This document shows, one piece after another, positions 8,913 to 35,033 of a DNA stretch of 64,000 nt (its first letter is position 1; every line of letters starts with the position of its first letter). Under the pieces are notes generated by a model that had not been told where the DNA came from, did not search any database, and saw only the letters and a program-made list of their open reading frames with translations. The stretch comes from a virus. The stretch lies in UHGV virus genome UHGV-1366976, one strand, 5' to 3'. The position numbers and the translations under genes were made by a program.

Positions 8913-8917
8913 TAAAT

Positions 8918-19473: not shown

Positions 19474-20038
19474 TTAACTGCATTTAGAAAATGAACAGGA
19501 TTTGCATAGGAGGCATCCATTATTGAAGACTAATTTATCTCCACACATAGGACAATTTTCTCCACTTTTAGCATTATTATCAACATACTTAGCAATTGTT
19601 CTTGCTAATACTTTATGAAAAGCTGTTAACTCACCTTTACTTTTCTTTAATTGATCAATTAAAAAGTTAAAACCAACATCACTTCTAATAGATATGGATA
19701 GAATTCTAGTAATCATTTCTAGTTGATCATCCATCACATCTACAAAGTTTTCTATAATAACTTTTCCTTCTTGATCTTGTAGTTGATAATATCCTTTTTT
19801 AATTTTAACAATTTTACCAATATCTGGTAATTTAATATCTTCTGGTGTAGGACATACAAATATTTCATATGGTTTACCTTCATAGAAGCCTAATGCACAA
19901 AGATAATTCTTTCCTTGAACCTTCATATTATGAATATGAGAAAGTAGCTCAGAAGGTCTCTTTGGTGCCTTTCTTGAAGGATCTTTAATCTTATTATCTG
20001 TAGATACTAGAACACCACTTCTACTACCATCTCTATAG
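19474..20038 (-). CDS. nrdJ: Class II ribonucleotide reductase NrdJ, exon 2 (C-terminal part with zinc ribbon)
   Basis: The frame is open upstream of the annotated Met and reads ...C|YRDGSRSGVLVSTDNK... Joining after exon 1 ...KGVTV gives the RNR motif KGVTVYRDGSR. The C-terminus CPMCGDKLVFNNGCLLCKSC matches the cysteine-rich zinc finger known at the C-terminus of class II RNRs. Confidence 0.65.
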
Positions 20039-20089
20039 CATTTCTACCTTTACTTTCATAAAGGATTGGACTATACCATAATCCTATTT

Positions 20090-20884
20090 CTAGGATTCCT
20101 CCATTATAGTCTCTGAACATCTTGTAATCCATTTATATTTATAGCATTCTAAAGGACAGTCTCCTATAAATTTTAAAAATTCTATTAAAGCTTTATTACT
20201 TAAATAATATGCTCCTCCATTATTATACTTATAATAGTTACAATTTCCAAATTTTTTAAACTGAGACAAAATAAATTCATTATAATGTTTACAAGAGATT
20301 TGTCCTCTATGAGTCTTAGACTTAGATTGTCTAGAGCTATTTCCATCTCCAATATACCACCATAATAACATTATCTTGTCTAAAATAATATTAGGAAGAA
20401 TTTTTCTATTTTGTTTTTGCTGAATCATTATTTCTTTTGGATAGAATAAATTATATAGTTCTAGAAACTCTCTTCTTGTTTCAGTTTGAAAACTATAGCA
20501 TTCAGAATTTTTTCTATAGAAAATCTTTGAACATTTTATATTATTTTTCTCAAAAATAGAAATTAAATATTCATGTACTTCTTTATGTTTATCTGTATAA
20601 GAAAAGTAGGGGTTTCTTAATTTTTTACTTATTCTAAGACTTCCATCTCCTAAAATTAAACCAATAAGTAAAGATCTAAATTCTGTACTAAATTTAATTT
20701 CTGGTTTCTCAACAAAGCTTTCTTTAACAGATCTTACTTTTATAGAATTTTTAATCAAATGATATCTTAAAGTTCCTAAATTTATATTATACTTTATAGA
20801 AAGTTTACTCATACTTTCTCCATCTAAATACTCTTTAATGATATCATTCCAAAATGAATTAGAATTTTGCTGCTGATTTTCCAT
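20090..20884 (-). CDS. LAGLIDADG homing endonuclease (intron-encoded)
   Basis: Two LAGLIDADG motifs, LLIGLILGDGSL and LLWWYIGDGNSS. Located wholly inside the nrdJ intron. Confidence 0.8.
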   Translation of the reverse strand: MENQQQNSNSFWNDIIKEYLDGESMSKLSIKYNINLGTLRYHLIKNSIKVRSVKESFVEKPEIKFSTEFRSLLIGLILGDGSLRISKKLRNPYFSYTDKHKEVHEYLISIFEKNNIKCSKIFYRKNSECYSFQTETRREFLELYNLFYPKEIMIQQKQNRKILPNIILDKIMLLWWYIGDGNSSRQSKSKTHRGQISCKHYNEFILSQFKKFGNCNYYKYNNGGAYYLSNKALIEFLKFIGDCPLECYKYKWITRCSETIMEES

Positions 20885-20917
20885 TTCTAAAAATTAAAAG
20901 GTTTTACAATAATTATA

Positions 20918-20949
20918 CAAAGATAGTATAAAAATTATAAAATTCCAAA
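20918..20949 (-). promoter_or_regulatory. Bacteroidota-type promoter (-33 TTTG / -7 TATCTTTG) driving the intronic HEG
   Basis: On the - strand, TTTG (20949-20946), 20 nt, then TATCTTTG (20925-20918), 33 nt upstream of the HEG ATG. Same motif and spacing as at 50070 and 50991. Confidence 0.45.
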
Positions 20950-21087
20950 TAATTTTTTCATCTTAACATTTTTCTAACATTCACACTTATCCTCTCAGAT
21001 TATGTTGTAGTAGTTAAGCTTTAGGAGGTTCCAGCAATTTAGAAGGTTATTCAATATACATTACTGTATAAGGCTGCCTATTTGTTA

Positions 21088-23066
21088 ACAGTAACTCCTT
21101 TAAGTCCCATTTTATAAGCATTAAGATAAATTTGTTTTACAACATCTTTACTTACATCTGAGGCTAAATTAATAGTTGTGCTAATTGAACTAGTAGTATA
21201 TTTTTGGATAATAGCTTGAATCTCTAATCTTGTTTGCCAAGGAATATCTGCTGCTTCATTATTATAATAAGGAGAAGATTTAAAGAGAGTATTAGTCATA
21301 CTCTTAGATAGTTCATTAAACTTCTTTCCAGTTGTTATTTCACAGAATTTCTGGAATCCTTTATGAGCAACTGTAAATACTTTAAATTTCTCTTTAGTAT
21401 TAGGATCTATAAAATCATATTTTTCATCAAAAGCATTTACTTTAACTCTTCTATCATACAATGTTTTAAATACTGGTTCTATACCACTAGTAGTTTGAGT
21501 TAGTAATGATCCTGATCCAACTGGAGCAACAGTACTTAATGAAACATTTCTTCTTCCTAGTTCTTTCATTCTGGAAACTAGTTTAGGATAATTATTTATT
21601 AAAAATTCATACCATTGATTACTAGGTTTATCTTCAGGATATTCTAAATTATAATCATAGTCTAAGAAAGTTCCTCTAAGATAAGCTAAATCTATACTAG
21701 CTTCTAATTCAGCTTTAAACTTAGTTTCCATAATAGATTCTACTAGATAATGAGAATCTTTAAATGATAGATTCATTGCAGCAATAGTATCTCCTAAAGC
21801 TGTGAATCCACATCCAATTCTTCTACCTTTTCTAGCTGCATCAAGAACTCTTTTCCAAAGTTCTATTTCACTTTTAGCATCTGAATGATTGATTATATTT
21901 TCAATATTTTTACATTCCAAATCAATAATATCATCCAGAAAGATTACATGTTCATATGCTATTTTTCTAAATAGTTCATAATCAAATGAGGCTTCACTAG
22001 TAAAAGGATTTTTTACAAATGATAAAAGATTAATATGAGATAATCTACATGAATCAGCATCACCTAATGGCTGTTCTCCACATGGATTAGTTGTAACAGC
22101 TTTTAATCTAGGATATACAGAAGCAGGATCATAATTAATAATATTATCCCATAATAGTATTCCAGGCTCAGCTGTTTTCCAAGCACAATCAATAATTAAA
22201 TCTAACAATTCATTTGCTTTTACCTTTTTAAAATAAGATTTTCCTGCATAATATAACTTATTATATTCAAAATCTTTAGAATTCCAATTAATAAATTCTC
22301 CTAATCTTGAATTAATAGGCCATTTTAGTAACCAATCTTCATTTTTTTGAGCAGCTGTTACTAAATTTCTACATAATTTCACAGAAATATTAGCTCCTGT
22401 AACTTTAGTTAAATCTTGTTTTATTGTAACAAATTCAGATATATCTGGATGAATATCTGACATACATAACATTAATGCTCCTCTTCTTCCATTTTGACCT
22501 ATAGTTTTAACATCTGTAGAATATAATTCCATAAAACTAGGAGCTCCTGTACTTGTTTTAGAAGCATTATTTACCATAGCTCCATTAGGTCTTAAATGAT
22601 CAAGATGTGTTCCAACACCACCCCTTCTCATAAATAAATAAGCCATCTCTTTGCCTTTATCCATAATGCTTTCCATTTTGTCTTTTGGTCCTTCAATACC
22701 AAAACAATTAGCTAGAGAAACATTATTAGCTTTACCTAGAGATGCCATAATAGATCCTCCTGGTACAATATATTTAAAATTTTTAAATAATTGAAACCAT
22801 TTATCTCTGATTTGATAATCATTAGACTCACATAGATCTCTTACATAATTTCTACCTAGATCAGAAAGTTTATCTATATTTATTTTTTTATTTACTAATT
22901 CTTTTTGATACTTTCTTTCTATAAGAGCAATATTATAAGCTAACCTCTGATGCATATTATCAGGTGTTTTTTCATCTTCACCTGCATATTTAGATAAAAA
23001 TACTTTAGCTGCTAATTCATCTCCTTCAAAATATTTCACACTACACTCTTCAGCTGTTTTCTTCAT
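21088..23066 (-). CDS. nrdJ: Class II ribonucleotide reductase NrdJ, exon 1
   Basis: Active-site loop TNPCGEQPLG (class II NPCGE signature), large alpha/beta-barrel-sized ORF. The ORF stops abruptly inside the conserved KGVTVYRDGSR motif. Confidence 0.7.
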
Positions 23067-23598: not shown

Positions 23599-24652
23599 CT
23601 TCCCCTCTTACTTGTTTATCATTTATTATATAACAACCTTCTTTATTTATGAAATCATAACTAACATCAAAAATTTGAGACTCATAATGCCATTCAATTT
23701 CCTTTATTAGTTGTTTAAGTCCTTTTTGTTTATATTCAGATCTTCCTATATAAAAACCATTTTCAAATGCAGAAATTCTATCTTTTTCTACAGTTAATAC
23801 AGTAGGAATTGTTGCTCCTGTTGAAGGCATATAAACAAAAACAAAATCTAAGATTTCATAATCTTGATATTGGTCATCATTTTTTATAATTTCTTCAAGC
23901 ATTTTATAATATAAAGTAGCTTGAATCCAATACCTGAATTTCCAGAATTGATCTACAAATTCATCTGATTTAACACTTCCAGTTTTTAAATCTATTATCT
24001 GGAAAGTTTTATTAACATGATCTACTACTAGTCTATCAAATGCACCTTTAACTTTAGATCCATTATAATCAGTAATAAGATCTACTTGATTAAATCCTTC
24101 TTGTCCTTCTAACAAGTTGAACCATTGCTGAGTTTTTGGAGAAGTTTTAATAGTTTCTACAATTTTCTCTGCAGTTGTCCACATAAATGGAGTTATTAAA
24201 ATAGAATCTTTATTCTGTAAAATAAAATCTAAATAATCTTTATATTTCCATACAGCTGCTGCCTTAGTTGCAGGCTTCCATGTTTTATAAAAATCTTTTT
24301 GTGCAAAGAATTCCAGTATAATCTCATCTGTTAACTGTTCTCCTGTTTTATTGATAAAATCTACACATTTATTAATAATTTCAGAAATACTACCAGAAGG
24401 CAATTCTCCATTATAATTATTAATTTTATATTTGTATAAATTTTGAGGAGATAATAACATATCATCTACTAATTTACCAAATATGATGTAAGATTTACCA
24501 TCAAGATCTTTCTTTGTTATTAAAGAAATAGGACCATCTTTATCATAAGATGCTATCTTAGAATAAGATAATGCCTTAGTTTCTCTAAATTCTTGTTCAC
24601 TACAACTTAATCTGAAATTTTCCATTGATCTACTTTTATCCAAACACCACAA
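23591..24652 (-). CDS. PD-(D/E)XK nuclease, RecB/Cas4-like family
   Basis: Motifs GAFDRLVVD ... QIIDLKTGS (D...ExK core) and C-terminal QATLYYKML (QxxxY, RecB nuclease motif). Confidence 0.55.
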   Translation of the reverse strand: MWCLDKSRSMENFRLSCSEQEFRETKALSYSKIASYDKDGPISLITKKDLDGKSYIIFGKLVDDMLLSPQNLYKYKINNYNGELPSGSISEIINKCVDFINKTGEQLTDEIILEFFAQKDFYKTWKPATKAAAVWKYKDYLDFILQNKDSILITPFMWTTAEKIVETIKTSPKTQQWFNLLEGQEGFNQVDLITDYNGSKVKGAFDRLVVDHVNKTFQIIDLKTGSVKSDEFVDQFWKFRYWIQATLYYKMLEEIIKNDDQYQDYEILDFVFVYMPSTGATIPTVLTVEKDRISAFENGFYIGRSEYKQKGLKQLIKEIEWHYESQIFDVSYDFINKEGCYIINDKQVRGEDE

Positions 24653-25005
24653 TTCTCCTTATCAACAGAATACCATTTTCCTTCAATTTTATAAGGGACA
24701 AAGAAAACTTGATTCATATTATCATCTTCAATCCATCCATTTTTAACTAGTAAATCTGCAATAAATTGGGTTAGATTATGAAAATCACATCTTCTTTTAC
24801 TATCCCTAACAAAATGAAGTCTAATAAACAAAGGTTTGTCTATTTCTCCTACATATTCTCTAAATTCTTTTGACTTTTCAACAAAAATATCCTTTGTAGC
24901 TTTCTCATATTTAAAACAAAGAGGAGACTTAATTAAAAGCCCACTCTTTGTCATCATTCTAGAATTTTTGCTACTAGGAACATTACCTGGTATAAAAATT
25001 TCCAT
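24607..25005 (-). CDS. RusA-like Holliday junction resolvase
   Basis: IPGNVPSSKNSR parallels RusA LPWPPSNNRY. RCDFHNL...GWIEDDNMNQV parallels RusA RRDLDNL...GFWLDDAQVV. Confidence 0.55.
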   Translation of the reverse strand: MEIFIPGNVPSSKNSRMMTKSGLLIKSPLCFKYEKATKDIFVEKSKEFREYVGEIDKPLFIRLHFVRDSKRRCDFHNLTQFIADLLVKNGWIEDDNMNQVFFVPYKIEGKWYSVDKENCGVWIKVDQWKISD

Positions 25006-26409
25006 TTATTTTACTAATTCAATTTGTTTGTAATCATATGAATAAGCAAAATCATCTAGAATTTCAATGAATCCACATCTGTCTCCATAAGAGATTTGAT
25101 GTTGTACTACCATTTTCATTCTATGGGAAATATAAGATAATAAATAGTCTACAATTGTTCTATCCTTAAAACAACTAGAAATAATAGAATTAAGATCTAC
25201 TTTAAGTTTATCACTAGAAGCACTCTTAATAATTTCATCCTGATGATTTAGCAAATACCACACTAGGGAATTACAAATATATACCCAGGGAATTACTTTA
25301 TACTTATTTAATGTTGGAGTATGAATTCTAAATTCAATAGTCTTTGCTCCACCAAAAATAAGATTTACAAGATTTACCCATTTGTATCTAGCATGTACTT
25401 CCCATTTTCTATTACCATCTCTATCATGTGGATGATTTGCTCCAAATCCTTCAAATACAAAACCTGGAGTTTCAGCATACATATCAAACAATTGTTTAAA
25501 TTGTTTTTCTACACTAAGAGTATTATCACAAGCATTTTTAGCTAATTTTTTACAATAATCTTTATCTCCCTTCTTAAAAGAGGAAGATGCTGTCATCATT
25601 GAGGGAAACATGGCTAAAATTTGAGGCTCTAATGCTTTAAAATAATGATATGCTGCAACAACAAGTGTTTTATCTACAGTAGGAACTCCTACATGAACAT
25701 GAAGAGAACATTGATGGTCAATATCACAATAATTTTGCAACATTTCACAAGTCTCATGTAATACACCAATACCTTCTTTGCCTTTAAGAGGAATTGTAGC
25801 ATATTCATTTCCTGTTATTGAACCATCTTTTAAAGGAATTAATCCTAGTCTAGCACATTCTGATTGTGGCACTGAACCAGAACATGTTTCAAATTCTATT
25901 CCAAAAGTTAAATTTGGAAGGTTAAACATACCAATTCTATTGGGAGTGTAATTGTCAGAATGGTATTTTTTAAAATCCTCTAATAAAAATTTAGCTCCAT
26001 AGTTATTTGGGAAATCATACATCCAAGAATATTTTCTATTTCTAATAGGTGTTTTATAGTTATTTCCCATACTAAGTTTCCCATTATACTTATAGATAAG
26101 ATTTTTAGGATTAATATACATATCTGGATCAACTTCCAAGAATCCAACTTCTTTTAAATATTTCTTGTCAAATACAGTAATTACAATTCCAAGAATATTT
26201 ACAGAAGCATTTTTAGCATAATTTCTACTAAAGAAACCATAATAATATTGTTGAGATAAAGGATCAAAATTTACAACTCCATAAATAAGAGAAGAAACAG
26301 AACTTCTCATCTCTTTTTTCTCAAAATCATAATATCTACTTCTACTAGGAGCAGTTTGAGTTAAGAAATAATGAACTCCTTCTTCTACATTAAAATCATT
26401 CTTAAACAT
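25006..26409 (-). CDS. Glutamine-synthetase-like amidoligase (COOH-NH2 ligase), copy 1
   Basis: Amidoligase motifs GIEFETCSG (GxExE), SLHVHVGV (HxH) and TIEFRIHT (ExR), 467 aa. Confidence 0.5.
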   Translation of the reverse strand: MFKNDFNVEEGVHYFLTQTAPSRSRYYDFEKKEMRSSVSSLIYGVVNFDPLSQQYYYGFFSRNYAKNASVNILGIVITVFDKKYLKEVGFLEVDPDMYINPKNLIYKYNGKLSMGNNYKTPIRNRKYSWMYDFPNNYGAKFLLEDFKKYHSDNYTPNRIGMFNLPNLTFGIEFETCSGSVPQSECARLGLIPLKDGSITGNEYATIPLKGKEGIGVLHETCEMLQNYCDIDHQCSLHVHVGVPTVDKTLVVAAYHYFKALEPQILAMFPSMMTASSSFKKGDKDYCKKLAKNACDNTLSVEKQFKQLFDMYAETPGFVFEGFGANHPHDRDGNRKWEVHARYKWVNLVNLIFGGAKTIEFRIHTPTLNKYKVIPWVYICNSLVWYLLNHQDEIIKSASSDKLKVDLNSIISSCFKDRTIVDYLLSYISHRMKMVVQHQISYGDRCGFIEILDDFAYSYDYKQIELVK

Positions 26410-26412
26410 AAA

Positions 26413-28218
26413 TTAATCCAGTGTTTTTAAAGTTTTAGTCAAATCTTCAATAATTTCATTAGCTTCTTTAATCAATTCAGAAAGTCCAGTAATGTCTTGA
26501 CATTCTTGTACAAACATTAAAAATTGTTGTTTACATAATTCTACTTGTGCAAAACTTTCACTTTTAAGAGCTAATAATAAATCCTCATAATTATTCTTTA
26601 CATCTTCTTTAAACTCTTCCCAACCTAAGTCACCAAAATAATATTTAATGCATTCAGAAAGTTGGGTAAAATCTGTTCTTAACCATTCAGGACAGAGAAT
26701 ATTTGTTCTGTCAGATTTAAAATTACTATAGTAGTGAGACATACCTACTCTCTTACCTATATCATTAAAATCTGTTTTAGTAGAAAAAGTTTTATAGAAT
26801 TCACTAATTCCTTTAGTAATTAAATAGCTTCTTAAAGTAAATAAAGGACTAAAATAGCCTGTTGGAAATATATTCCCTTTTACTTTAAAATCATATCTAG
26901 TAAAGGCATTCTCTCCTAAATACAAGAAATTCTCAGCAATAAAAGGTGTAATATAATCCACTTTTCCTGTTAAAGTATAAATTTGTTGAGCCATTTTATA
27001 ACAATGAGGATGGATTAGTATACCATCTATAAAGTACACTTTCCAATCTGAAGTATATTTACTTGTAGTTATATATCCTAAAGGAGAACAATTATACACT
27101 CCATTCAATAACTGTTTCTTTTGATAATATCTACCTCTAGCAAATAGAATATTATCACTATTATAATAGCCTTCAGTAGATTCTTTATCTAGATCACTTT
27201 CAAGTTTGGTTTTAGAAGGAACTATTAAAACTGGAATCTTTTTATCTTCCTTCTTAGTATTAAATTTGTTTCCTTCTTTATACCTTTCAGATTCTCTCTC
27301 CCAATATCTCTGATAAGCAACATCATCTTCATAATCATCACCATAACTTCCATAGTTATAATAATCATAACCATAAGCATTGTGATTATGACCAGAATAA
27401 GTGGATACATAAGGTTTCTTTTGAAGACATTCACTCCTATCATAGACAGTTTTACTTACAAGTTTTCCATTTTCAAATTTATATAAAGTATTAGGTTCTA
27501 CAGGAGCTATTCTTTCTTGATCATCTTTAGAATTATCTATAAATGATAAAGATTCTTCTAAAGAAGAAAAATACCAATAATCCTCATCTATATTATACAA
27601 GAACAAAGGTCTTTCTTCATCTGTAGTTGTTGAAGTACTATAAGCTTTAGATTTTCCTCTAAAAATATATACTACATCAACTCCTCTAGAAATCTTTTCT
27701 CTAATATCATAGATAACTATAGCTGCTGCACCAATATATTCAGTTAGGATTTTAAATCCCTCTTTTTTAATTAGTTTAGCTAGAATTTTAGAATCAGTTT
27801 CACCTTTAACTTCTTTGATACCATATTTTTCAGCTAATTCTTCATGATTCTGGAGTGTACCATTATGAATCATTACAAAATCTTCTGTTAAAACATTTTC
27901 TTGTTTTTTTTGTTCTTCTGTTAAAGACTCATTTAATAATACTATGGGTTGAGCATTAGCTTCTGTATGAGCACCTACAGTAGCTTTTCTACAATGTCCT
28001 AAAATAACATTGTTTTCTTTAAATACAGAATCATTTTTATAAGATAAAACTAAATCTCTATAAAGTTTTTTCTTTTCTACTCCATAAAGAACTCTTCCTA
28101 GTAAATACCTTCCACAAGAATCACCACCTCTAGAATCATTAAAAAGTCCTAATACATTAAACTTATCCCAACTAAATCTTTTATTATCTTTTCCAATATA
28201 ACCAAAAAGTCCACACAT
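26413..28218 (-). CDS. Class II (Ntn) glutamine amidotransferase fused to an unknown C-terminal domain
   Basis: N-terminal MCGLFGY (Cys2 nucleophile), GHCRKATVG, MIHNGTL (HNG) and GETDSK. Tyr/Gly/Asp-rich linker GHNHNAYGYDYYNYGSYGDDYEDD. C-terminal ~300 aa has no recognisable motif. Confidence 0.65.
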   Translation of the reverse strand: MCGLFGYIGKDNKRFSWDKFNVLGLFNDSRGGDSCGRYLLGRVLYGVEKKKLYRDLVLSYKNDSVFKENNVILGHCRKATVGAHTEANAQPIVLLNESLTEEQKKQENVLTEDFVMIHNGTLQNHEELAEKYGIKEVKGETDSKILAKLIKKEGFKILTEYIGAAAIVIYDIREKISRGVDVVYIFRGKSKAYSTSTTTDEERPLFLYNIDEDYWYFSSLEESLSFIDNSKDDQERIAPVEPNTLYKFENGKLVSKTVYDRSECLQKKPYVSTYSGHNHNAYGYDYYNYGSYGDDYEDDVAYQRYWERESERYKEGNKFNTKKEDKKIPVLIVPSKTKLESDLDKESTEGYYNSDNILFARGRYYQKKQLLNGVYNCSPLGYITTSKYTSDWKVYFIDGILIHPHCYKMAQQIYTLTGKVDYITPFIAENFLYLGENAFTRYDFKVKGNIFPTGYFSPLFTLRSYLITKGISEFYKTFSTKTDFNDIGKRVGMSHYYSNFKSDRTNILCPEWLRTDFTQLSECIKYYFGDLGWEEFKEDVKNNYEDLLLALKSESFAQVELCKQQFLMFVQECQDITGLSELIKEANEIIEDLTKTLKTLD

Positions 28219-28235
28219 AATATTATTTTAAATAA

Positions 28236-29054
28236 TTAAACCATAGGAATATTAAATGTCTCTACAAGCTGTTTAGCTACTTCTACATTTCCTCCCATAG
28301 CTGCTAAGACTTCATCTTTTAATACATCTATATCAATAGAATCTTCATCGTCATTTAAATATTTATTTACTTCTTCAATAGCTTTAAGAGTATTATTAAA
28401 AGCCCATCTTAGTAGATTATCATCTTTTAAGAAATATCCACTTAATGTTCTGGCTTCTACTCCATATCTACAATGTCTAAAAGACCCAGCTGATCCATAA
28501 ACTCCTCTTCTCTCATTCTTAGGCTCTATTAATACAGAAGGAACTCCAACAAATAGATCAAAGAATTTTACTATAATAATATTTAATGGAGCTACAGGAT
28601 CTTTATATCCTATATGAATGTGCATACCCACAGTCCTCAATGTTCCTGGAAATTCTGCTGGTTTAGGATTAACTTCTCCATCTTTCCAAGCATTATAATC
28701 TTCAGAACATCCAATTTCTTTTGCTTGAGGATGTTGTAAATACTCTTCTTTTAAATGTCCATCAGGTAGATGCAATAATGTTAGATTAGGATCAATTTTA
28801 TTTAGATACTCTTGAATATATCCCTTCATAAAGTTCATATGCTCTACAAATTCATCCACATTATTAGTAGGAGGAATATTAAATTCTGCTAGAATATTAT
28901 CTGTTTGTAAAGCATATCCTTTATCTCCAATAATATAAGGAGCATCTTTAGTACCAGGAATAAAAGGAATTGCAGAGACAATCTCTGCTTTTTCCTTGTT
29001 ATAAATAAATAATTCTGGATCAGATCCAATTAAGATGTTATCTACTCTTTTCAT
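28236..29054 (-). CDS. Glutamine-synthetase-like amidoligase, copy 2
   Basis: IGSDPELF (ExE-type), VGMHIHIGY (HxH) and YGVEARTLSGY (ExR). Confidence 0.45.
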   Translation of the reverse strand: MKRVDNILIGSDPELFIYNKEKAEIVSAIPFIPGTKDAPYIIGDKGYALQTDNILAEFNIPPTNNVDEFVEHMNFMKGYIQEYLNKIDPNLTLLHLPDGHLKEEYLQHPQAKEIGCSEDYNAWKDGEVNPKPAEFPGTLRTVGMHIHIGYKDPVAPLNIIIVKFFDLFVGVPSVLIEPKNERRGVYGSAGSFRHCRYGVEARTLSGYFLKDDNLLRWAFNNTLKAIEEVNKYLNDDEDSIDIDVLKDEVLAAMGGNVEVAKQLVETFNIPMV

Positions 29055-29056
29055 AG

Positions 29057-29785
29057 TTATTTTCTTATAATATTACCATTTCTTAATAATACAGTTACAA
29101 AATTTCCATTTGCTAATACCTGAGCAACTCTAGCTTGAGATTGAGGGACTTCAAAATATTCTCCAGTATCTGGATTCTTTTTCATGAATTTAATAACTTC
29201 ATATAAAGTTCCTCTTTCCAAGGTCATTGTTCCTGTATTATGAGAAAAATAGACTTTTTCTTCTGCTATTTTTTTGTCTTCTTCAGTTTCAACTTCATCA
29301 ACTTCCCATTCTCTAGAAAAAGTTTCTTCATATTCTTCTCTATCAACATATCTCAGATAAGCTTTAAATTCTTCAATTTCAGCATTATCTATAAAAGATA
29401 GTTGAGTATCTCCAAGAGATAATTCTACTTTTCTTTCTCCTGTATCTATTACAATACTTTTTATAGATAATGGATCTAATACACCATTTACAAATTCAAA
29501 TGTCTGTCTAGTTTTAAGATCTTCCATAATAATAGAAGATATTTCAAACTTTTTCTTATATAAAGGATGTTTAGGATTAGTAATTTCTACTGTACAAATT
29601 TTAAAATTTTCTTTTGGAAGAGCTCCTAATACACCATTTACTCTAACAACATTAGATTCTTCAAAAGGTGCTGGTACTAATCTATTGAAGATATCTGCTT
29701 CTTGAGAATATTTATAGCTACTCAAAGCAGAAACTAACATACCTGCTGACAAAGGAGTAACATCTTTAATAACTTGTAAAATCAT
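29057..29785 (-). CDS. Hypothetical protein within amidoligase cluster
   Basis: 242-aa ORF with an acidic stretch EVDEVETEEDKK. No motif recognised. Confidence 0.4.
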   Translation of the reverse strand: MILQVIKDVTPLSAGMLVSALSSYKYSQEADIFNRLVPAPFEESNVVRVNGVLGALPKENFKICTVEITNPKHPLYKKKFEISSIIMEDLKTRQTFEFVNGVLDPLSIKSIVIDTGERKVELSLGDTQLSFIDNAEIEEFKAYLRYVDREEYEETFSREWEVDEVETEEDKKIAEEKVYFSHNTGTMTLERGTLYEVIKFMKKNPDTGEYFEVPQSQARVAQVLANGNFVTVLLRNGNIIRK

Positions 29786-29786
29786 A

Positions 29787-30356
29787 TTAAATTAATCTTT
29801 TTTTTTGAATAAGTGAATTTTGATTTACTGCATTTGTAATAAGAACTTTTGTTGCTTTTTCATATGTTGTATAACATAAGAATTTTTTAAGATCTGTTCT
29901 CCAAGGAACTTCTACTTCTCTATAAGCACAAACAAAGTCATACAAATAATTAGGATCAGGATTCCAAAGATCTTTTTTTAATCTTTTAGTATCTACAGCC
30001 ACTAAATCTGGATAATCTGATTCTATTTGAGATTGATATGTTAATAAAGATTTATCTATATTAGTAACACTTCTAAATGTACCATTATCCATATAATAAC
30101 CTAAACTTATTGTATCTTCTAGTCCACAATTTTCTTCATTATAAACTTTTAAGTTTAGATATTCTACTTTATGTCCATCATAATATAAAGGAGAACATAA
30201 ATCTTTATCTAAAAACATTTTAGTTCTAGAATTATTTGTATAGACCTGGATAAAATCCAGGCCATTATAAATATCTGAGCTTGTTAAACTGTTAAAGATA
30301 GTAAGATCTGTTCTTCTTATTACTGGATTTTTATAAGAAACAATTCTACTAGCCAT
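29787..30356 (-). CDS. Hypothetical protein within amidoligase cluster
   Basis: 189-aa ORF, no motif recognised. Confidence 0.4.
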   Translation of the reverse strand: MASRIVSYKNPVIRRTDLTIFNSLTSSDIYNGLDFIQVYTNNSRTKMFLDKDLCSPLYYDGHKVEYLNLKVYNEENCGLEDTISLGYYMDNGTFRSVTNIDKSLLTYQSQIESDYPDLVAVDTKRLKKDLWNPDPNYLYDFVCAYREVEVPWRTDLKKFLCYTTYEKATKVLITNAVNQNSLIQKKRLI

Positions 30357-31350
30357 TCTGTCTAAAATTAATTTCTTTCCAAGAAAATGATTTAGATTTC
30401 ATATATTCTAGAGAAGACCAGTGTTCTCTCTTATTATCTTCACCTTCTTCTAATTCATAAGCTGCAATCCAATCAAAATATTTAGAATATTTAGCTGCTG
30501 CATATTCAGAATTAGATAGTTCAGGAGCAGTATTTACTTCTAATACATATGGAGAACCATCTTCTGTCACTACAACATCAACAGCTCCAAAATCTAGACC
30601 TAAAGCATTAAGAGCTCCTACACAAGCTCTAGCTAATCTAAGATCATTCTTAGTAGGTTCAGCACCTTCTCTAAGATTTCCAAATTTTCCATAATCATCC
30701 CATCCAATAACTGTCCATGCTTCTGCATTTTGAGCATGATTCCATACTATTTGATTAGGATCTTCTGGTCTAGGTTTCTCTAGCAAAGCAAGAATTTTAC
30801 TATGAGCTACATGAGCTCTAAATTCTTTAACTTTAGGAACAAAATTACTGTAATAGTGATCTTTCTTGTGAACATTATAGTGAGCTAAAAATTCTTCCCA
30901 TGTATTAAAGGTATAAAAGTTTTTACCTTGATGATGAAGTAAAGGTCTTCCAATAATAGGAAATACAACTTTAGATCTATCTGTTTGAGGAGTAATATTT
31001 AATGGACAAGGAATCTCATTCTCAGCAAATAGTTTTCTAGCTAGACTCTTTACTGAAGCATTCTTTACTGCAGAAGAATTATTATAAACAACATTTGCCA
31101 AATCATCTACTTGAATTCTATTTCCCCATTTAATCAAATAAGATTTATCTAATAAAGAATCTATATTCTTAGTTTTAGTCATGGTAATATTACCATTCTC
31201 ATCTTTAGAATATACTTCAAAGATATATCCTTTAGATTTTTTTAATTCTTTTCTAATAACTAGATAAGCATTTGGATTTTTCACTTCTGCAAATACTTTT
31301 TTCATTGAAGGTCTCCCACCTAATCCACACAAAATTACTACTTTTTCCAT
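30349..31350 (-). CDS. ATP-grasp ligase (RimK/glutathione-synthetase-like)
   Basis: FPIIGRPLLHHQGKNF (substrate/ATP loop), GAVDVVVTEDGSPYVLEVNTAPELS (ATP-grasp LEVNxxP motif). Confidence 0.6.
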   Translation of the reverse strand: MEKVVILCGLGGRPSMKKVFAEVKNPNAYLVIRKELKKSKGYIFEVYSKDENGNITMTKTKNIDSLLDKSYLIKWGNRIQVDDLANVVYNNSSAVKNASVKSLARKLFAENEIPCPLNITPQTDRSKVVFPIIGRPLLHHQGKNFYTFNTWEEFLAHYNVHKKDHYYSNFVPKVKEFRAHVAHSKILALLEKPRPEDPNQIVWNHAQNAEAWTVIGWDDYGKFGNLREGAEPTKNDLRLARACVGALNALGLDFGAVDVVVTEDGSPYVLEVNTAPELSNSEYAAAKYSKYFDWIAAYELEEGEDNKREHWSSLEYMKSKSFSWKEINFRQNG

Positions 31351-31352
31351 AT

Positions 31353-32006
31353 TTATTTATTTAATAAGTTATTGTCAATAAGTTGAATTAATCTTTTATG
31401 AAATTCTCCAATTTTCATCATTTCAGGATGCCCTTGGATTCCTAAACATTTTACAGGATTATTATATTTATCCTTAAAAAATAATACTACTTCAGGCTCT
31501 ACTGGAGGGATTTGTGAATATTGTTCATCTTCTCCATTAATATACTTGGTAGATCTTCTTTCAGTGCTCCATGCTTCAATACTATAATTTTCTTTTGGTA
31601 ATTCAAAAGGATATACCATTTGATGATGTAAAGAAGTAGTAACACATTGAAATCCATCTTTAAAAGTAATATTATGAGAGCATCCTGCATGATTAGATAC
31701 ATCTTGAATAACTCTACCACCACATAGACCACAAATTAATTGTAGTCCTCTACATATTCCTATCATTGGAATATTTAATTCTACTGCTTTTTTAAAGACT
31801 TCAATTTCAACTTTATCTCTATGTTCATTTCCCCAATATGTTCTAGAAATTTTTTCTCCATATATTGAAGGACTAATATCTGCTCCACCAGTAAACATTA
31901 TTAAATCAGCTTCTAGAATATCTCTAGTGATAACAGCTTCTTTATAGAAATCTAGTAACCAGTAAGCATATCCTACTCCATAATCTCCAGCTATATAAAT
32001 ATTCAT
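31353..32006 (-). CDS. Class I glutamine amidotransferase-like / peptidase C26 (gamma-glutamyl hydrolase-like)
   Basis: Catalytic-Cys motif GICRGLQL and His/Glu motif IQGHPEMM. FTGGADISP glycine-rich turn. Confidence 0.6.
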   Translation of the reverse strand: MNIYIAGDYGVGYAYWLLDFYKEAVITRDILEADLIMFTGGADISPSIYGEKISRTYWGNEHRDKVEIEVFKKAVELNIPMIGICRGLQLICGLCGGRVIQDVSNHAGCSHNITFKDGFQCVTTSLHHQMVYPFELPKENYSIEAWSTERRSTKYINGEDEQYSQIPPVEPEVVLFFKDKYNNPVKCLGIQGHPEMMKIGEFHKRLIQLIDNNLLNK

Positions 32007-32830
32007 TTTTTAAGTATGTTTAGTTTTAAAAATTTTTCTAATAAATCATTTTCTTCTTTTATATGTACAATTTTTAATATCACAGAAGACAATTCTACAT
32101 CTTTAATTGTAGAAAAACAATTAAACATACTAGAAGGCACAGATTTACTTCTTATTTTTTCTAGAAATTTTTTAACATTTGGAAGTTCACAATTATTAGG
32201 CCAAGCACTATGACCTTGTCCTGTAAGTCTTCTTTTAGCTGCTTCTAGATATAAAAGTTCATAAAAAGTAAAATGTTTAAAGAGAAAAGGTTTAGTTTTT
32301 TCATATGATAACACACTATTTAGAATAGGATTAAATGTGTTTTCATAACTTATTCTTACTAATGGTCCAAAATGCTTAAAAAATAACTGTCTTGCTTCAG
32401 AAGGTAGTTCTATAGGCTTACTAATATCAAAAGTGGCTTGATATCCATCTAATGTATTTTTTGGATACATTTCATCATATTTTTCTAAAGATCTGTCTAT
32501 TTTTCCTAATCTACCTGGAGAATCTGCAACAGCACATAGATAATCATAATTAGTATGATAATCTTCAAACTTTACTAATGGACATTCCATAATTTTACCT
32601 ATATAATCAAGATATTTTTCAATTTCTTTCTTAGGAGTAAAAGTATTATTGGTAAGACACAATTTAGATCCATCTGTAAAAATTCCTACTTTAACAAATT
32701 GATATTTTTCTCCTTCTGTTTGCAATTTAGCATTAAGAGAAGAATTAAATGCTCCCCAACAAGGACTTGCAGTATAATGATAATTAGTTCCTTTGTTAGA
32801 AACTCCAATAAGAGATGTAAATAAACTCAT
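32003..32830 (-). CDS. Hypothetical protein within amidoligase cluster
   Basis: 275-aa ORF, no motif recognised. Confidence 0.4.
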   Translation of the reverse strand: MSLFTSLIGVSNKGTNYHYTASPCWGAFNSSLNAKLQTEGEKYQFVKVGIFTDGSKLCLTNNTFTPKKEIEKYLDYIGKIMECPLVKFEDYHTNYDYLCAVADSPGRLGKIDRSLEKYDEMYPKNTLDGYQATFDISKPIELPSEARQLFFKHFGPLVRISYENTFNPILNSVLSYEKTKPFLFKHFTFYELLYLEAAKRRLTGQGHSAWPNNCELPNVKKFLEKIRSKSVPSSMFNCFSTIKDVELSSVILKIVHIKEENDLLEKFLKLNILKK

Positions 32831-33225
32831 GATTCTTTATTTGTTGTTAATTTTTTATGTTTAAATTCTGTCCAATCTCCACTTTCTACAACTTCCTCTT
32901 CATTTGTAATTTTTAGAGGAGATAAATAATAAACTAGATAGTCTTCATCTTCAATTTTAATATATTTTTTAGAATAAAAATCAGGATATCCTTCTAAGAT
33001 ATCTAAATTTCTTGCTGTTTTGTCATCTACTTTATATAATTCAAATACTACTAGATTATTTTCTTTTGTGGGTATTAGTGCAGGAAATCTATCTGACATA
33101 GAAATCATTTTAAAAGGAACTTCTACACTAACAGTTTTAATAAAGTCTGAATGAGACATTAAATAATGATTATACAGACCTTTTCTTAAAGAGCCATATA
33201 CAGCTACTTTATACTTGTTTTCCAT
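32827..33225 (-). CDS. Gamma-glutamyl cyclotransferase (AIG2/GGCT-like)
   Basis: N-terminal VAVYGSLRKG (YGSL+xG GGCT motif) and catalytic-Glu region ILEGYPDFY. 132 aa, typical size. Confidence 0.6.
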   Translation of the reverse strand: MENKYKVAVYGSLRKGLYNHYLMSHSDFIKTVSVEVPFKMISMSDRFPALIPTKENNLVVFELYKVDDKTARNLDILEGYPDFYSKKYIKIEDEDYLVYYLSPLKITNEEEVVESGDWTEFKHKKLTTNKES

Positions 33226-34186
33226 TTTCTATAAGTTCTTTAATTAATTCTTTAGTAACAGTTTTTCCAAAGTCTCTATGAAAATCTGAGATATCTTTAG
33301 ATTCAAAACCATCAGGTATTTCTACTTGAATTAAGTTATGAGTCTTTGCAATCTCAGTTGCATACATTCTTCCCCAATTATGAGATTTGTTAAAGTCATT
33401 ATCATACCATATAAAAACATTTTTAAATCTTTTCTTTAGATCATTGATTTTTTCTTTAGAAGGATTTCCAGTTTCACTTTGCATGTTAACAGAAGGATAA
33501 CTACTATTAGACATGATACACATAGAATCTTTTCTACTCTTGGTAATAATTACAACATCTCCAGAAATAGGAAGATGATTATACAAATCCCAAATACTGA
33601 AAGGAATATTAGAAGTCCATTTAGCACTTTTACTATAAGGTCTGTATATTTTATAATAAAATTTTGAATAATATTCTGTATATGCATAACAATAGTCTTT
33701 TGTGCTAAATAATTGGTTGTATTCTCCATCAATTAAATAATAATGTGAAATTGGATAAACCCCAAACTCTGTTAATCTTTTATGATCTACTCCATAAGTT
33801 TCCCAATATTCAATATCCTCTAAGTTAAGATCTCTAATTCTTATTTTAATTTCATATTCTTTCTCTTTTGGTGTGTAATTAAATCTATGACAAGCTATGT
33901 TAGATTCACATTTTACATCTGTTTTAGAAATTAATTCTGAAGCATCTGCTAATGTAGGCAATTGTAAAAAAGATTGAATTAATGAAACTATATCTCCATA
34001 TTCTCCACTAGCAAAATCTTTATAATAAATTTTACCATCAGGATTATAATAGATATAAAATGAAGGATGATTATCTTCCCTTAGAGGACTGTTGATTAAT
34101 TGGTTTACTGGTAATTCTCCTAAGAAATAAAATAATAACTTTAACTCATCTTTATTTCCTGTTGTTAGAGGTTTACCAATTAACAT
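33209..34186 (-). CDS. DnaG-like DNA primase with degenerate zinc-binding domain and TOPRIM domain
   Basis: SPLREDNHPSF...YKDFASGEYGDIV parallels the DnaG zinc ribbon CPFHxEKTPSF...YHCFGCGAGGD but with the Cys ligands replaced. TOPRIM-like VVIITKSRKDS ... FIWYDNDFNK. Confidence 0.5.
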   Translation of the reverse strand: MLIGKPLTTGNKDELKLLFYFLGELPVNQLINSPLREDNHPSFYIYYNPDGKIYYKDFASGEYGDIVSLIQSFLQLPTLADASELISKTDVKCESNIACHRFNYTPKEKEYEIKIRIRDLNLEDIEYWETYGVDHKRLTEFGVYPISHYYLIDGEYNQLFSTKDYCYAYTEYYSKFYYKIYRPYSKSAKWTSNIPFSIWDLYNHLPISGDVVIITKSRKDSMCIMSNSSYPSVNMQSETGNPSKEKINDLKKRFKNVFIWYDNDFNKSHNWGRMYATEIAKTHNLIQVEIPDGFESKDISDFHRDFGKTVTKELIKELIENGKQV

Positions 34187-34193: not shown

Positions 34194-35033
34194 TTAAAAT
34201 GGAAGGTCATCATCATAAGGATCTTCTGATTTCTTTTCTTCTACTTCTTGTGGTTTAGCTGGTTCTGTTGTTTCAACTCTATATTCTTTTAATTCAAATG
34301 GATTCTCTCCATAGAAAGCATTAGATATATCTGAAATATCAGAAGCTAATTTACTATAGTCTGTAATCCAATTTCTCAAAGTAGATCTATTATAGACAGT
34401 TTGAAACATTTTACCATCTTTACCTTCTCTTACTCCACACAACACTTTAAAAGTTTGTTCTTTACCTTCAGCTAATTTTACTAGTTGATGTAGTTCTTTA
34501 AAGTTTCCTTTAAATAAAGCTGGCACATCTTCTATTTGACAATAAGCTTGAGTGAGATCTTTTTCTACTTTTCCAGGTTGTGGTAAATTAAACCAATTAG
34601 AAATAGTTTCTACAACACTAGCTTCTCCTCTATAAGCTAATCTTAGTCCTTCTGGTCTAAACCAAGGATATGCAGAAGTGTCTTTAGCTTTTAATTCTGC
34701 AGGTGTAATCCATGTAGAATGTCCAAAGATATTTAATACTTGTACTTTTCCTGAAGTTTTACTTGTCCAAGAAGATTTTACAATAGTTTGTTGAAGTCTA
34801 ACAACTCTTTCTCTAGCTACTGCATCTTTTATTTTAAGCCAGAATACAATATCTACAGTATCTTTTTCTCCATCTGGAAATTGCTGAGTTCTAACATAAA
34901 TAGGAGGTTCTACTTCTTTGCCAATAATTTTTTGTAATGTTTTCTGATCTGGGTTGATTGCTATTACTTCCACAGTTGCTACCCCCACTAAAGGAAAAAA
35001 TCCTCTACTTTCTTTTCTTTCTCCAATCAACAT
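34194..35033 (-). CDS. ssb: Single-stranded DNA-binding protein
   Basis: C-terminus DPYDDDLPF is the canonical SSB acidic tail (E. coli DDDIPF). N-terminal OB-like region. Confidence 0.55.
   Translation of the reverse strand: MLIGERKESRGFFPLVGVATVEVIAINPDQKTLQKIIGKEVEPPIYVRTQQFPDGEKDTVDIVFWLKIKDAVARERVVRLQQTIVKSSWTSKTSGKVQVLNIFGHSTWITPAELKAKDTSAYPWFRPEGLRLAYRGEASVVETISNWFNLPQPGKVEKDLTQAYCQIEDVPALFKGNFKELHQLVKLAEGKEQTFKVLCGVREGKDGKMFQTVYNRSTLRNWITDYSKLASDISDISNAFYGENPFELKEYRVETTEPAKPQEVEEKKSEDPYDDDLPF

Follow-up and report, generated by a model that had tools for sequence, protein, structure and literature searches.

The window, which is the whole 64,000-nucleotide stretch of virus genome UHGV-1366976 that was analysed, carries nine tightly packed ORFs on its minus strand between positions 25006 and 33225, flanked by a primase and a RusA-like gene. 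From the primase side these are:

33209..34186, minus strand: context, DNA primase, directly upstream (homology to cr108_1 and phi14:2 primases)
32827..33225, minus strand: GGCT, AIG2/GGACT-like, 132 aa, cassette gene 1
32003..32830, minus strand: p8, 275 aa, family-less, clade-restricted
31353..32006, minus strand: class-I amidotransferase-fold protein, Peptidase_C26/PuuD type, 217 aa (Pfam, PHROGs)
30349..31350, minus strand: ATP-grasp amide/peptide ligase, RimK/R2K-like, 333 aa (phrog_2599, motifs)
29787..30356, minus strand: p5, 189 aa, family-less, clade-restricted
29057..29785, minus strand: p4, 242 aa, family-less, clade-restricted
28236..29054, minus strand: COOH-NH2 ligase, phiEco32-type, GCS/GS-like carboxylate-amine ligase, 272 aa (Pfam, PHROGs)
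26413..28218, minus strand: Ntn (class II) glutamine amidotransferase, 601 aa (Pfam, PHROGs)
25006..26409, minus strand: Amidoligase_2 family GS-like ligase, 467 aa, the cassette's final gene
24607..25005, minus strand: context, RusA-like resolvase, directly downstream (weak Pfam match, synteny)

Junctions between the ORFs range from 8- and 4-nt overlaps through gaps of 0-3 nt, with a single gap of 17 nt; the GGCT gene shares 17 nt with the primase stop, and the Amidoligase_2 gene abuts the RusA-like gene. Because the spacing is this tight, the cassette genes are taken to be co-expressed, and the layout indicates co-transcription with the replication genes. The title of the sequence-only reading counted eight genes, which the ORF listing does not support, whereas the nine co-directional ORFs that it placed at 25006-33225 are all present. 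Its placement of the block between RusA and primase likewise holds: the primase ORF, which had no match in a Pfam search, is 37% identical to the annotated cr108_1 primase and also matched the phi14:2 primase, while the RusA-like ORF lies just under the Pfam RusA cut-off (20.2 bits against 22.8, E 9e-4) and corresponds by synteny to the gene annotated as RusA-like in phi14:2.

Ten related IMG/VR genomes of ~100 kb conserve all nine genes in synteny, and dN/dS values of 0.11-0.33 between the window and genome L012 show purifying selection on every one of them, which argues that the three family-less ORFs are real genes. Six enzyme calls are backed by profiles (Pfam, PHROGs, NCBIfam), and the catalytic motifs of the enzymes are kept in homologues from eight phage lineages. 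Gene families, intact catalytic motifs, synteny and purifying selection are thus directly observed, and the enzyme calls first made from motifs were all confirmed, the profile searches having matched the expected families instead of unrelated folds with chance motifs. The low GC content (26-29%) alone speaks for the ORFs or motifs being chance features of AT-rich sequence; this reading, of negligible probability, is refuted by significant profile matches in six ORFs, nine-gene synteny across ten related genomes and dN/dS far under 1 in all nine genes. No transmembrane segments or signal peptides were found in the nine products, all of which look soluble and cytoplasmic.

Three of the enzymes are ligases. 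The Amidoligase_2 protein (Pfam Amidoligase_2 8.5e-9; phrog_2443 1.5e-19) is extended at its N-terminus by ~165 aa specific to the clade and has the motifs GIEFE, HVHVG and EFR, which are conserved in homologues. Its gene adjoins that of the Ntn amidotransferase in seven of ten cases (window, phi14:2, cr108_1, L013, Lbo-JY46, L019 and DL54). The COOH-NH2 ligase matches Pfam COOH-NH2_lig PF14395 (5e-9) and, over its full length, phrog_3815 (9.7e-62), with conserved DPE, HxHxG and ExR motifs and 316 phage records matched by tblastn. In sibling genomes, a homing-endonuclease insert sits in this gene exactly before the HIHIG motif. The ATP-grasp protein matches phrog_2599 (ATP-grasp) at 2.3e-23 and reaches no Pfam or NCBIfam family cut-off, the matches to Pfam R2K_3, R2K_2 and RimK and to NCBIfam rimK_fam and MptN being local and below it; its LEVNTAP (ExN) and GAVD motifs are conserved across all lineages compared.

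The Ntn amidotransferase (Pfam GATase_6 2.4e-13; phrog_4736 3e-14) consists of an N-terminal glutaminase domain of ~260 aa with conserved N-terminal Cys, R, NG and D motifs, a Tyr/Asp-rich linker and a family-less C-terminal region of ~270 aa. For residues ~345-500, alignable homologues are confined to crAss-like phages and cyanophages; residues 300-601, searched exhaustively with phmmer, returned only the protein's own cluster, and a profile search gave the C-terminal region no PDB relative and no recognisable acceptor-domain fold. The C26 protein (Pfam Peptidase_C26 2e-18, GATase 1e-10; phrog_7218 2e-29) conserves its Cys (GICRG) and His-x-Glu (GHPE) motifs. Among solved structures and curated families it comes closest to gamma-glutamyl-amide hydrolases, PuuD and gamma-glutamyl-CDP-amidate hydrolase among them (PDB 3fij 4e-10, PuuD 6vtv 1e-3; NCBIfam, below cut-off, gamma-glutamyl-CDP-amidate hydrolase 6.5e-9, PuuD 1e-5), and it is predicted to be a gamma-glutamyl-amide hydrolase or glutaminase. 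The GGCT matches the full Pfam GGACT profile (1.1e-17) and phrog_2520 (1.5e-23), and the homologues in phi14:2, CW02, DL54 and HP1 retain its YGSL and LEGYP motifs.

The latter two enzymes raise the alternative of small-molecule or auxiliary metabolism, in which a soluble gamma-glutamyl compound (a glutathione-like peptide or gamma-glutamyl-polyamine) or nitrogen is handled in support of replication. PuuD-type gamma-glutamyl-amine hydrolases are the nearest relatives of the C26 protein, GGACT-type cyclotransferases use gamma-glutamyl amines, and there is a weak Pfam match to GCS2; GCS2-type ligases and ATP-grasp enzymes serve gamma-Glu-Cys and glutathione synthesis. A PRPP synthetase gene adjoins the cluster of cyanophage Lbo-JY46, and some authors label such genes as nitrogen-metabolism auxiliary metabolic genes (PMC10945688, PMC10580990), claims which are, however, not biochemical. 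We nevertheless consider this explanation unlikely: neither a Gln-synt_C domain of the PuuA/GlnA type nor a match at GshB level came out of the Pfam and NCBIfam searches, recycling needs fewer than three ligases and two amidotransferase-type enzymes, and the gene set is essentially phage-restricted, a search of bacteria and archaea (185,579 species, one genome each) having given 2 loci only, both on short MAG contigs.

Homologues of p4, p5 and p8 occur only in sibling IMG/VR genomes, that is, in the phage's own clade, and none of the three could be matched to a family or solved structure (Pfam, PHROGs, NCBIfam, PDB) or usably to a fold. The ORF p4 has a dN/dS of 0.15 and an acidic central stretch, and compared with the unknown ORFs in cassettes of other lineages its hhalign probability is <2%; p8 evolves fastest within the block. 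All three probably serve as accessory or targeting factors specific to the lineage; the sequence-only reading proposed that they may be a substrate or carrier, or the missing transferase. They could also be the substrates or adaptors of a protein-tagging system, in which the ATP-grasp and GS-like ligases would put Glu/Gln or peptide tails on a host or phage protein, with the C26 enzyme and GGCT as erasers. Characterised RimK-family enzymes glutamylate ribosomal protein S6, and the phage ATP-grasp, besides its local RimK and R2K matches, falls in a PHROG annotated as S6 modification. Phage R2K ATP-grasps have been proposed as host-protein modifiers (PMC4431377), and fast-evolving lineage-specific ORFs are found in the cassette of every lineage, as expected of host-contacting factors. 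However, every RimK and R2K match is under curated cut-offs, and the acidic C-terminus typical of RimK/LysX acceptors is absent from p4, p5 and p8. GGCT and PuuD-type enzymes, moreover, act on small gamma-glutamyl amines and not on protein tails, and we give tagging a low probability.

Judged from its genes, the cassette is a further instance of an enzyme operon that many phage annotations already contain. The sequence-only reading could name no such system; this was mistaken, as the six families and their slot in the replication region are known from phiEco32, LUZ24, RIO-1/HP1 and CW02 phages, and the cluster is also carried by the crAss-like phages phi14:2 and cr108_1. Cultured Cellulophaga phage phi14:2 (g037-g041) has a five-gene core in the order and position of the window (primase, GGCT, ATP-grasp, COOH-NH2 ligase, GATase II, amidoligase, UDG, RusA), to which the window adds the C26 enzyme and p8, p5 and p4. 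Uncultured cr108_1 has a close version with no detectable GGCT and with two unknown ORFs, of 335 and 300 aa, that differ from those of the window. Cassette proteins of the window are 29-43% identical to those of both phages, in which the slot is the same (primase, cassette, (UDG), RusA, PD-(D/E)XK exonuclease); unlike them, the window has no UDG between cassette and RusA.

The operons of phiEco32, LUZ24, RIO-1 and CW02 likewise combine COOH-NH2_lig, Amidoligase_2, Ntn amidotransferase, RimK-like ATP-grasp and GGCT, with a class-I/C26 amidotransferase in several lineages, as co-directional genes of the early/replication region interspersed with lineage-specific unknown ORFs. The families cluster beside a primase or primase-helicase in CW02, DL54/LUZ24-like phages and UFV-P2 (for the latter, PMC3890496). 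Lbo-JY46 has a similar cluster, and in phiEco32-like NJ01 the genome stretch examined holds the ligase, amidotransferase and ATP-grasp genes but neither primase nor GGCT. The window differs from the podovirus operons in gene order, and from the known operons in the longer, clade-specific C-terminal region of its amidotransferase, in three accessory ORFs with no detectable relatives in other lineages, and in belonging to a divergent crAss-like virus whose DNA polymerase is <40% identical to that of any database phage.

This recurrent position inside a replication/nucleotide-metabolism module, beside the primase in several unrelated phage families, together with the uracil-DNA glycosylase gene following the cassette in phi14:2 and cr108_1, could point to DNA hypermodification, in which an amino-acid-like or polyamine-like group on a phage base would evade restriction. 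Glutamyl- and putrescinyl-thymine chemistry are models for this. Amidoligase and amidotransferase domains do co-occur with thymidine-hypermodification genes on some viral contigs, but the published pathways attach the amino acid by aGPT-Pplase and not by ATP-dependent ligases (PMC8989533). Thymine hypermodification, which had been suggested from the sequence, found no partner genes: 5-hmdU DNA kinase, aGPT-Pplase, ThyA-like hydroxymethylase and TET/JBP oxygenase were unmatched in a scan of 28 neighbouring ORFs, which, like the window, stops short of the final ~36 kb of the ~100-kb genome. The presence of ThyX thymidylate synthase, dUTPase and dNMP kinase agrees with ordinary thymidine, and we regard hypermodification as quite improbable.

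Discussion of the operon goes back to Iyer et al. 2009 and Hardies et al. 2013, both cited in the literature that names it (PMC4819975, PMC5498523, PMC6256558), where it is read as making gamma-glutamyl amides or unusual peptide bonds; PMC5498523 calls it a "peptidoglycan modification cassette". In phage HP1 the cassette genes are expressed immediately on infection (PMC7082346). Biochemical characterisation of any operon enzyme was not found in the papers searched; substrate, product and even direction of flux are drawn from family chemistry.

The best explanation, which we hold with moderate confidence, is that the cassette forms an early cytoplasmic pathway of ATP-dependent amide ligation, glutamine-dependent amidation and gamma-glutamyl removal; the sequence-only reading, which saw a toolkit to ligate, amidate, cyclise and hydrolyse, was right in general, as in its domain assignments. 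We infer the enzyme pairing, step order and target. The COOH-NH2 ligase, Amidoligase_2 and RimK-like ATP-grasp would use ATP to form amide or isopeptide linkages on an acceptor derived from the host. The Ntn amidotransferase, probably partnered with Amidoligase_2, the adjoining gene in most lineages, would supply glutamine-derived ammonia, so that one activated carboxylate would become a carboxamide. Gamma-glutamyl groups may be removed or recycled by the PuuD-like C26 enzyme through hydrolysis and by GGCT through release of 5-oxoproline, and the pathway as a whole would leave either an amide decoration of the Glu/Gln type or an amine freed from a gamma-glutamyl intermediate.

Known pathways parallel parts of this scheme. 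In the glutamine-dependent amidation of peptidoglycan stem peptides, MurT/GatD and the AsnB/LtsA-type amidation of mDAP likewise combine a glutamine amidotransferase with an ATP-dependent ligase and convert a cytoplasmic carboxylate into a carboxamide, but their ligases have Mur-ligase or asparagine-synthetase domains whereas those of the window are GS/GCS-like; as no sequence relationship was found, the likeness is one of analogy only. The Puu/Pau pathway, which gamma-glutamylates polyamines (PuuA ligase, PuuD C26 hydrolase), and butirosin biosynthesis, with its gamma-glutamyl protecting group (BtrJ ATP-grasp, BtrG GGCT), share ATP-dependent gamma-glutamyl ligation followed by C26 or GGCT removal, a likeness resting on family-level chemistry, while the window lacks a PuuA-type Gln-synt_C domain, a carrier protein and downstream oxidoreductases.

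The published guess for the acceptor, which we rank first but regard as a tentative possibility, is a cytoplasmic peptidoglycan stem-peptide precursor altered early in infection. A contig with four of the genes was binned with Anaeroplasmataceae, a wall-less family. Partial related gene sets are also reported in viruses assigned to archaea (PMC11706807; bioRxiv 10.1101/2025.02.15.638363). These host assignments, if right, argue against a peptidoglycan-specific target. The phage restriction of the gene set fits a role in conflict or takeover better than borrowed host metabolism, and an altered peptidoglycan precursor would change the envelope or exclude other phages.

The cassette comprises nine consecutive minus-strand ORFs between a primase gene (33209-34186) and a RusA-like gene (24607-25005). 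Their coordinates are exactly those of the sequence-only reading, while the gene count in its title, eight, has to be corrected to nine. From the primase towards the RusA-like gene the ORFs are as follows.

32827-33225, minus strand: gamma-glutamyl cyclotransferase (GGCT)
32003-32830, minus strand: p8, 275 aa, without assigned family
31353-32006, minus strand: C26 protein
30349-31350, minus strand: ATP-grasp protein
29787-30356, minus strand: p5, 189 aa, without assigned family
29057-29785, minus strand: p4, 242 aa, without assigned family
28236-29054, minus strand: COOH-NH2 ligase
26413-28218, minus strand: Ntn amidotransferase, 601 aa
25006-26409, minus strand: Amidoligase_2 protein

The junctions range from overlaps of 8 and 4 nt down to gaps of 0-3 nt, with a single gap of 17 nt; the first cassette gene and the upstream primase gene share 17 nt at the primase stop, and the final cassette gene abuts the RusA-like gene. 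The cassette sits within a long leftward gene run (about 48.9 kb to 13.1 kb), a replication and nucleotide-metabolism module with a DnaB-like helicase, an AAA_24 ATPase, the primase, a PD-(D/E)XK nuclease, ribonucleotide reductase, a family-A DNA polymerase, dUTPase, ThyX and a dNMP kinase. The GC content of the region is 25-29% throughout, and a promoter and terminator scan returned 119 sites against 125 expected.

Several features of the surroundings deserve mention in their own right. Coding strand and GC skew flip together near 13 kb and 50 kb, at the limits of the outer parts of the window (1-13057 and about 50000-64000), and two very large plus-strand ORFs of 2955 and 1379 aa take up positions 3-13057. 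Upstream of the primase, 34194-35033 (minus strand) encodes a 279-aa protein without Pfam match that ends in DPYDDDLPF, an acidic tail as is typical for single-stranded-DNA-binding proteins. The ribonucleotide reductase gene (19474-23066, minus strand) appears split into a 662-aa barrel ORF (21078-23066) and a TSCPD-domain ORF (19474-19926), between which lie a LAGLIDADG ORF (20090-20884) and a sub-threshold match to the group I intron family RF00028 (20047-20196; 29 bits, E 5e-5).

Profile searches bear out all six enzyme assignments previously made from short motifs, including both amidoligases, whose motifs might have belonged to an unrelated fold: the Amidoligase_2 protein matches its Pfam family (PF12224) at 8.5e-9 and 36.1 bits (cut-off 22) and phrog_2443 at 1.5e-19, and the COOH-NH2 ligase matches Pfam COOH-NH2_lig (PF14395) at 5e-9 and 36.2 bits (cut-off 25) and phrog_3815 over its full length at 9.7e-62. 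The Ntn amidotransferase, which starts with MCG, matches GATase_6 (2.4e-13, 50.7 bits, cut-off 27), and the AIG2-like GGCT matches GGACT (1.1e-17, 65.1 bits, cut-off 22.8) and is homologous to the GGCTs of phages CW02, DL54, HP1 and phi14:2. The C26 protein matches Peptidase_C26 (2e-18, 67.4 bits, cut-off 20.5) and GATase (1e-10), and in the PDB 3fij and PuuD 6vtv. It falls short of the NCBIfam equivalog thresholds for PuuD and Cj1417-type enzymes, and among solved and curated proteins it is closest to PuuD-type and gamma-glutamyl-CDP-amidate hydrolases. The ATP-grasp protein matches phrog_2599 (2.3e-23) and is homologous to the ATP-grasp genes of CW02, DL54, NJ01 and phi14:2. It stays below every curated Pfam and NCBIfam threshold, with 36 bits against 143.4 for rimK_fam (TIGR00768) and, for the profiles of the R2K ATP-grasp clade (PF14243, PF18299), 22.4 against 26.3 for R2K_3 and 20.6 against 26.2 for R2K_2. 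Because no curated threshold is reached, it should be described as RimK/R2K-like, presumably working like those enzymes, rather than as a family member. The PHROGs labels of the cassette families are amidoligase, aminotransferase, COOH.NH2 ligase, ribosomal-protein-S6-type ATP-grasp, glutamine amidotransferase and gamma-glutamyl cyclotransferase.

The catalytic motifs are kept in homologues from eight phage lineages. Conserved positions are the N-terminal Cys, R, NG and D in the Ntn domain, the Cys (GICRG) and His-x-Glu (GHPE) of a Cys-His-Glu triad in the C26 domain, ExN in the ATP-grasp protein, YGSL and LEGYP in GGCT, and E, HxHxG and ExR in both GS-like ligases (GIEFE, HVHVG and EFR in Amidoligase_2). 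Chance ORFs or motifs are excluded. In none of the nine proteins is a transmembrane segment or signal peptide predicted, nor does any significantly match the PADLOC models of anti-phage defence.

A near-identity DNA search with the block found no match among 50,697 phage records, and relatives were therefore sought at the protein level. The COOH-NH2 ligase then matched 316 phage records by tblastn, with the crAss-like phage cr108_1 on top; most of these records belong to phages infecting Pseudomonas, Escherichia, Vibrio, Aeromonas, Proteus and Salmonella, and crAss-like phages are also included. Separately from these, the ligase was found in the cyanophage Lbo-JY46. The ORFs behind the annotated genes of other lineages were paired with the window proteins by iterated profile search.

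Gene content of related phage operons (sequences of genes in the order of transcription)
Salinivibrio phage CW02: class-I amidotransferase, Ntn amidotransferase, COOH.NH2 ligase, amidoligase, ATP-grasp, GGCT, primase/helicase
Pseudomonas phage DL54 (LUZ24-like): two unknowns, COOH.NH2 ligase, unknown, amidoligase, Ntn amidotransferase, ATP-grasp, GGCT, primase/helicase
phiEco32-like phage NJ01: the same ligases, amidotransferase and ATP-grasp
crAss-like phage cr108_1: primase, ATP-grasp, two unknowns, class-I amidotransferase, COOH-NH2 ligase, Ntn amidotransferase, amidoligase, UDG
Cellulophaga phage phi14:2 (cultured, crAss-like): primase, GGCT, ATP-grasp, COOH.NH2 ligase, Ntn amidotransferase, amidoligase, UDG, RusA, exonuclease
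Leptolyngbya phage Lbo-JY46 (L018, 2201-10688) and a distant crAss-like IMG/VR contig (L013, 2605-19163): expanded operon with three C26 paralogues each

All five families of the operon of phiEco32, LUZ24 and RIO-1 type (COOH-NH2 ligase, Amidoligase_2, Ntn amidotransferase, ATP-grasp and GGCT) are present in the window, and in both the genes form a co-directional early or replication cluster adjoining a primase or primase-helicase. With phi14:2 the window shares order and position, and differs in what is added to the set, namely p8 and the C26 enzyme after GGCT, and p5 and p4 after ATP-grasp. The gene table of phage UFV-P2 likewise gives a DL54-like layout (PMC3890496). The sequence-only reading had found no system it could name for this composition; the operon has in fact been named and annotated in phiEco32, LUZ24, RIO-1 and CW02 phages, in phi14:2 and in cr108_1. 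A seven-gene "peptidoglycan modification cassette" is listed for RIO-1, phiEco32, 7-11, PA11, tf, MR299-2, LUZ24, PaP3 and CW02 (PMC5498523), and a seven-ORF version is known from Sinorhizobium phage PhiM6 (PMC6256558).

The expanded operons show peculiarities of their own. A second Ntn-like protein (start MCLIIYK) is encoded on the distant crAss-like contig, where a scan of the cluster for further informative domains found none, and a PRPP synthetase gene lies directly upstream of the operon in Lbo-JY46. A scan of bacterial genomes for non-phage settings yielded only two MAG contigs, both phage-fragment-like. One of them, the 15-kb contig CAVAQB010000099.1 (L019), has C26, COOH-NH2 ligase, Ntn amidotransferase and amidoligase genes at 6221-10208, ordered as in cr108_1, and is probably a phage fragment; it is binned in a MAG of the Anaeroplasmataceae, a wall-less family.

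Within its own clade the cassette is stable. The COOH-NH2 ligase recovered eleven loci from IMG/VR, ten of them in sibling genomes (six of about 100 kb, four on contigs of 61-75 kb), and in nine of these ten siblings the full set of nine genes, together with the two flanks, is arranged as in the window, at protein identities of 47-99%. In the tenth (L003) the contig ends within the block, and only the last five cassette genes are present. In the most distant subclade the enzymes are best conserved (71-83% identity), and p4, p5, p8, GGCT and the long amidotransferase diverge faster (47-63%). Comparison of the window with sibling L012 gives dN/dS values of 0.11-0.17 for the five larger enzymes, 0.15 for p4, 0.19 for p5, 0.27 for GGCT and 0.33 for p8, and we conclude from this range (0.11-0.33) that all nine genes are coding and under purifying selection. 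The DNA polymerase of the clade is at most 39% identical to that of any phage in the database.

Compared with the siblings L004-L006 (about 6224-7052), p8 (32003-32830) is just 84% identical while the flanking genes there reach 95-99%, and its dS is 0.34 against 0.03-0.19; p5 and the COOH-NH2 ligase behave similarly, to a lesser degree. These differences point to local recombination or to diversification among the accessory genes. In siblings L010, L011 and L012 the COOH-NH2 ligase gene is interrupted exactly before the catalytic MHIHIG motif by an 1147-bp insert (L010, 10430-11576) encoding a 294-aa LAGLIDADG homing endonuclease (Pfam LAGLIDADG_3, 1.4e-14). The corresponding site lies between codons 143 and 144 of 28236-29054 in the window, where the allele is uninterrupted. 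At the same site the distant crAss-like contig L013 (10424-10714) has a gap of about 290 nt without any ORF, whose fold is more stable than that of shuffled sequence (z = -3.4). Rfam recognised no group I intron in either type of insert.

The proteins p4, p5 and p8 have no match in Pfam, PHROGs, NCBIfam, PADLOC or the PDB, and for p8 and p5 a search of 5.8 billion proteins returned seven homologue clusters each, all from this clade. Alignment by hhalign of all three with the unknown cassette ORFs of cr108_1, L013, HP1, CW02, DL54 and NJ01 gave probabilities below 2%, with shallow profiles and hence low power. The AlphaFold2 models are poor (pLDDT 64 for p8 and 55 for p5, with an N-terminal beta domain alone modelled), and the sole suggestive structural match of p8 is an uncharacterised 386-aa protein of another crAss-like virus (BFVD, E 1.6e-3, TM 0.38). 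Interspersed, fast-evolving and lineage-specific ORFs recur in the operon of every lineage examined, and the ones in the other lineages are likewise placed in lineage-specific PHROGs. A conserved protein of about 190-205 aa without Pfam match, phrog_4877, is common to LUZ24-like and phiEco32-like cassettes (L016, 6776-7345; L002, 6799-7416), its gene located between COOH-NH2 ligase and amidoligase; the 189-aa p5 has no detectable similarity to it. The C-terminal part of the amidotransferase (about 270 aa), where an acceptor domain is expected, has relatives limited to the crAss-like and cyanophage versions: a word-indexed search returned one fragment only, an exhaustive phmmer search of 1.84 billion representatives its own cluster only, and a seven-sequence profile found nothing in the PDB. 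Substrate, adaptor and unrelated passenger are all conceivable roles for these proteins.

As judged from the conserved residues, the catalytic machinery for ligation, glutamine hydrolysis and cleavage of gamma-glutamyl amides is intact. The COOH-NH2 ligase, Amidoligase_2 and ATP-grasp proteins would carry out three ATP-dependent carboxylate-amine ligations, the Ntn amidotransferase would hydrolyse glutamine, and the C26 enzyme and GGCT would cleave gamma-glutamyl amides. Since the genes for the Ntn amidotransferase and Amidoligase_2 adjoin each other in seven of ten lineages (the window, phi14:2, cr108_1, L013, Lbo-JY46, L019 and DL54), their association suggests that a carboxylate activated by ATP is amidated at the expense of glutamine. 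The C26 gene adjoins that of the COOH-NH2 ligase in four lineages (cr108_1, L013, Lbo-JY46 and L019), and the enzyme might serve as a second source of ammonia or as a hydrolase. Together with GGCT it may strip gamma-glutamyl groups, resulting in product editing or in unmasking of an amine. Every step is predicted to be cytoplasmic and early in infection; in Pseudoalteromonas phage HP1 the operon genes are transcribed immediately upon infection (PMC7082346).

The published proposal of a peptidoglycan precursor as target, which goes back to Iyer et al. 2009 and Hardies et al. 2013 (PMC5498523, PMC6256558, PMC4819975), is in keeping with both the conserved set of enzymes and the diderm nature of the hosts. 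Partial related gene sets have been reported from viruses assigned to archaea (PMC11706807; bioRxiv 10.1101/2025.02.15.638363), and these, along with the four-gene contig binned in the Anaeroplasmataceae, speak against a role confined to murein, provided that the hosts are correctly assigned. Elsewhere subsets of the genes are labelled as auxiliary nitrogen-metabolism genes (PMC10580990, PMC10945688, PMC11706807). All labels given to the operon since 2009 in the literature searched (peptidoglycan modification, superinfection exclusion, nitrogen metabolism) are predictions, and full-text searching found no experimental determination of its substrate or product. The cluster is thus annotated and discussed for crAss-like phages, though without the established role that would have made it a known housekeeping system.

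Two further uses of the ligating and cleaving enzymes, the tagging of proteins and a soluble gamma-glutamyl metabolism, both appear unlikely to us. Hypermodification of thymine in phage DNA, suggested earlier for this cluster, draws on the occurrence of amidoligase and amidotransferase domains beside thymidine-hypermodification genes in some viral contigs (PMC8989533). Its defining partners, 5-hmdU DNA kinase and aGPT-Pplase, are however absent by Pfam from the nine cassette proteins and the 28 neighbouring ORFs within the window, beyond which about 36 kb of the genome extend, and ThyX (PF02511, 1.4e-27) is the only thymidylate synthase found, with no ThyA-like dUMP hydroxymethylase or TET/JBP oxygenase; we consider DNA hypermodification by the cassette enzymes quite improbable. 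It is also conceivable, at a very low probability, that the C26 enzyme, the novel C-terminal domain of the amidotransferase and the three clade-specific proteins redirect the chemistry of the five-enzyme core to a new target; phage DNA or a replication protein could, for instance, receive a peptide-like or amine decoration. Such a role would account for the position of the operon beside the primase in several phage families that are unrelated to each other.

The feature is real and its earlier domain dissection correct; the cassette is an addition, from a divergent crAss-like clade, to a widespread and already-named phage operon. Its presence here is unsurprising. Hundreds of sequenced lytic phages carry the operon (the signature ligase alone occurs in the 316 records), and the finding by itself leaves existing knowledge unchanged. 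Throughout one entire clade within the crAss-like phages the operon is stably maintained, under selection, in the replication module, and the cultured relative phi14:2 bears a minimal five-gene version. The five-gene core and the nine-gene version form a clean comparative set with phi14:2 as a tractable experimental system, and this contrast between core and extended operon, in combination with a cultured carrier, offers a practical route into the 15-year-old question of the role of the operon.
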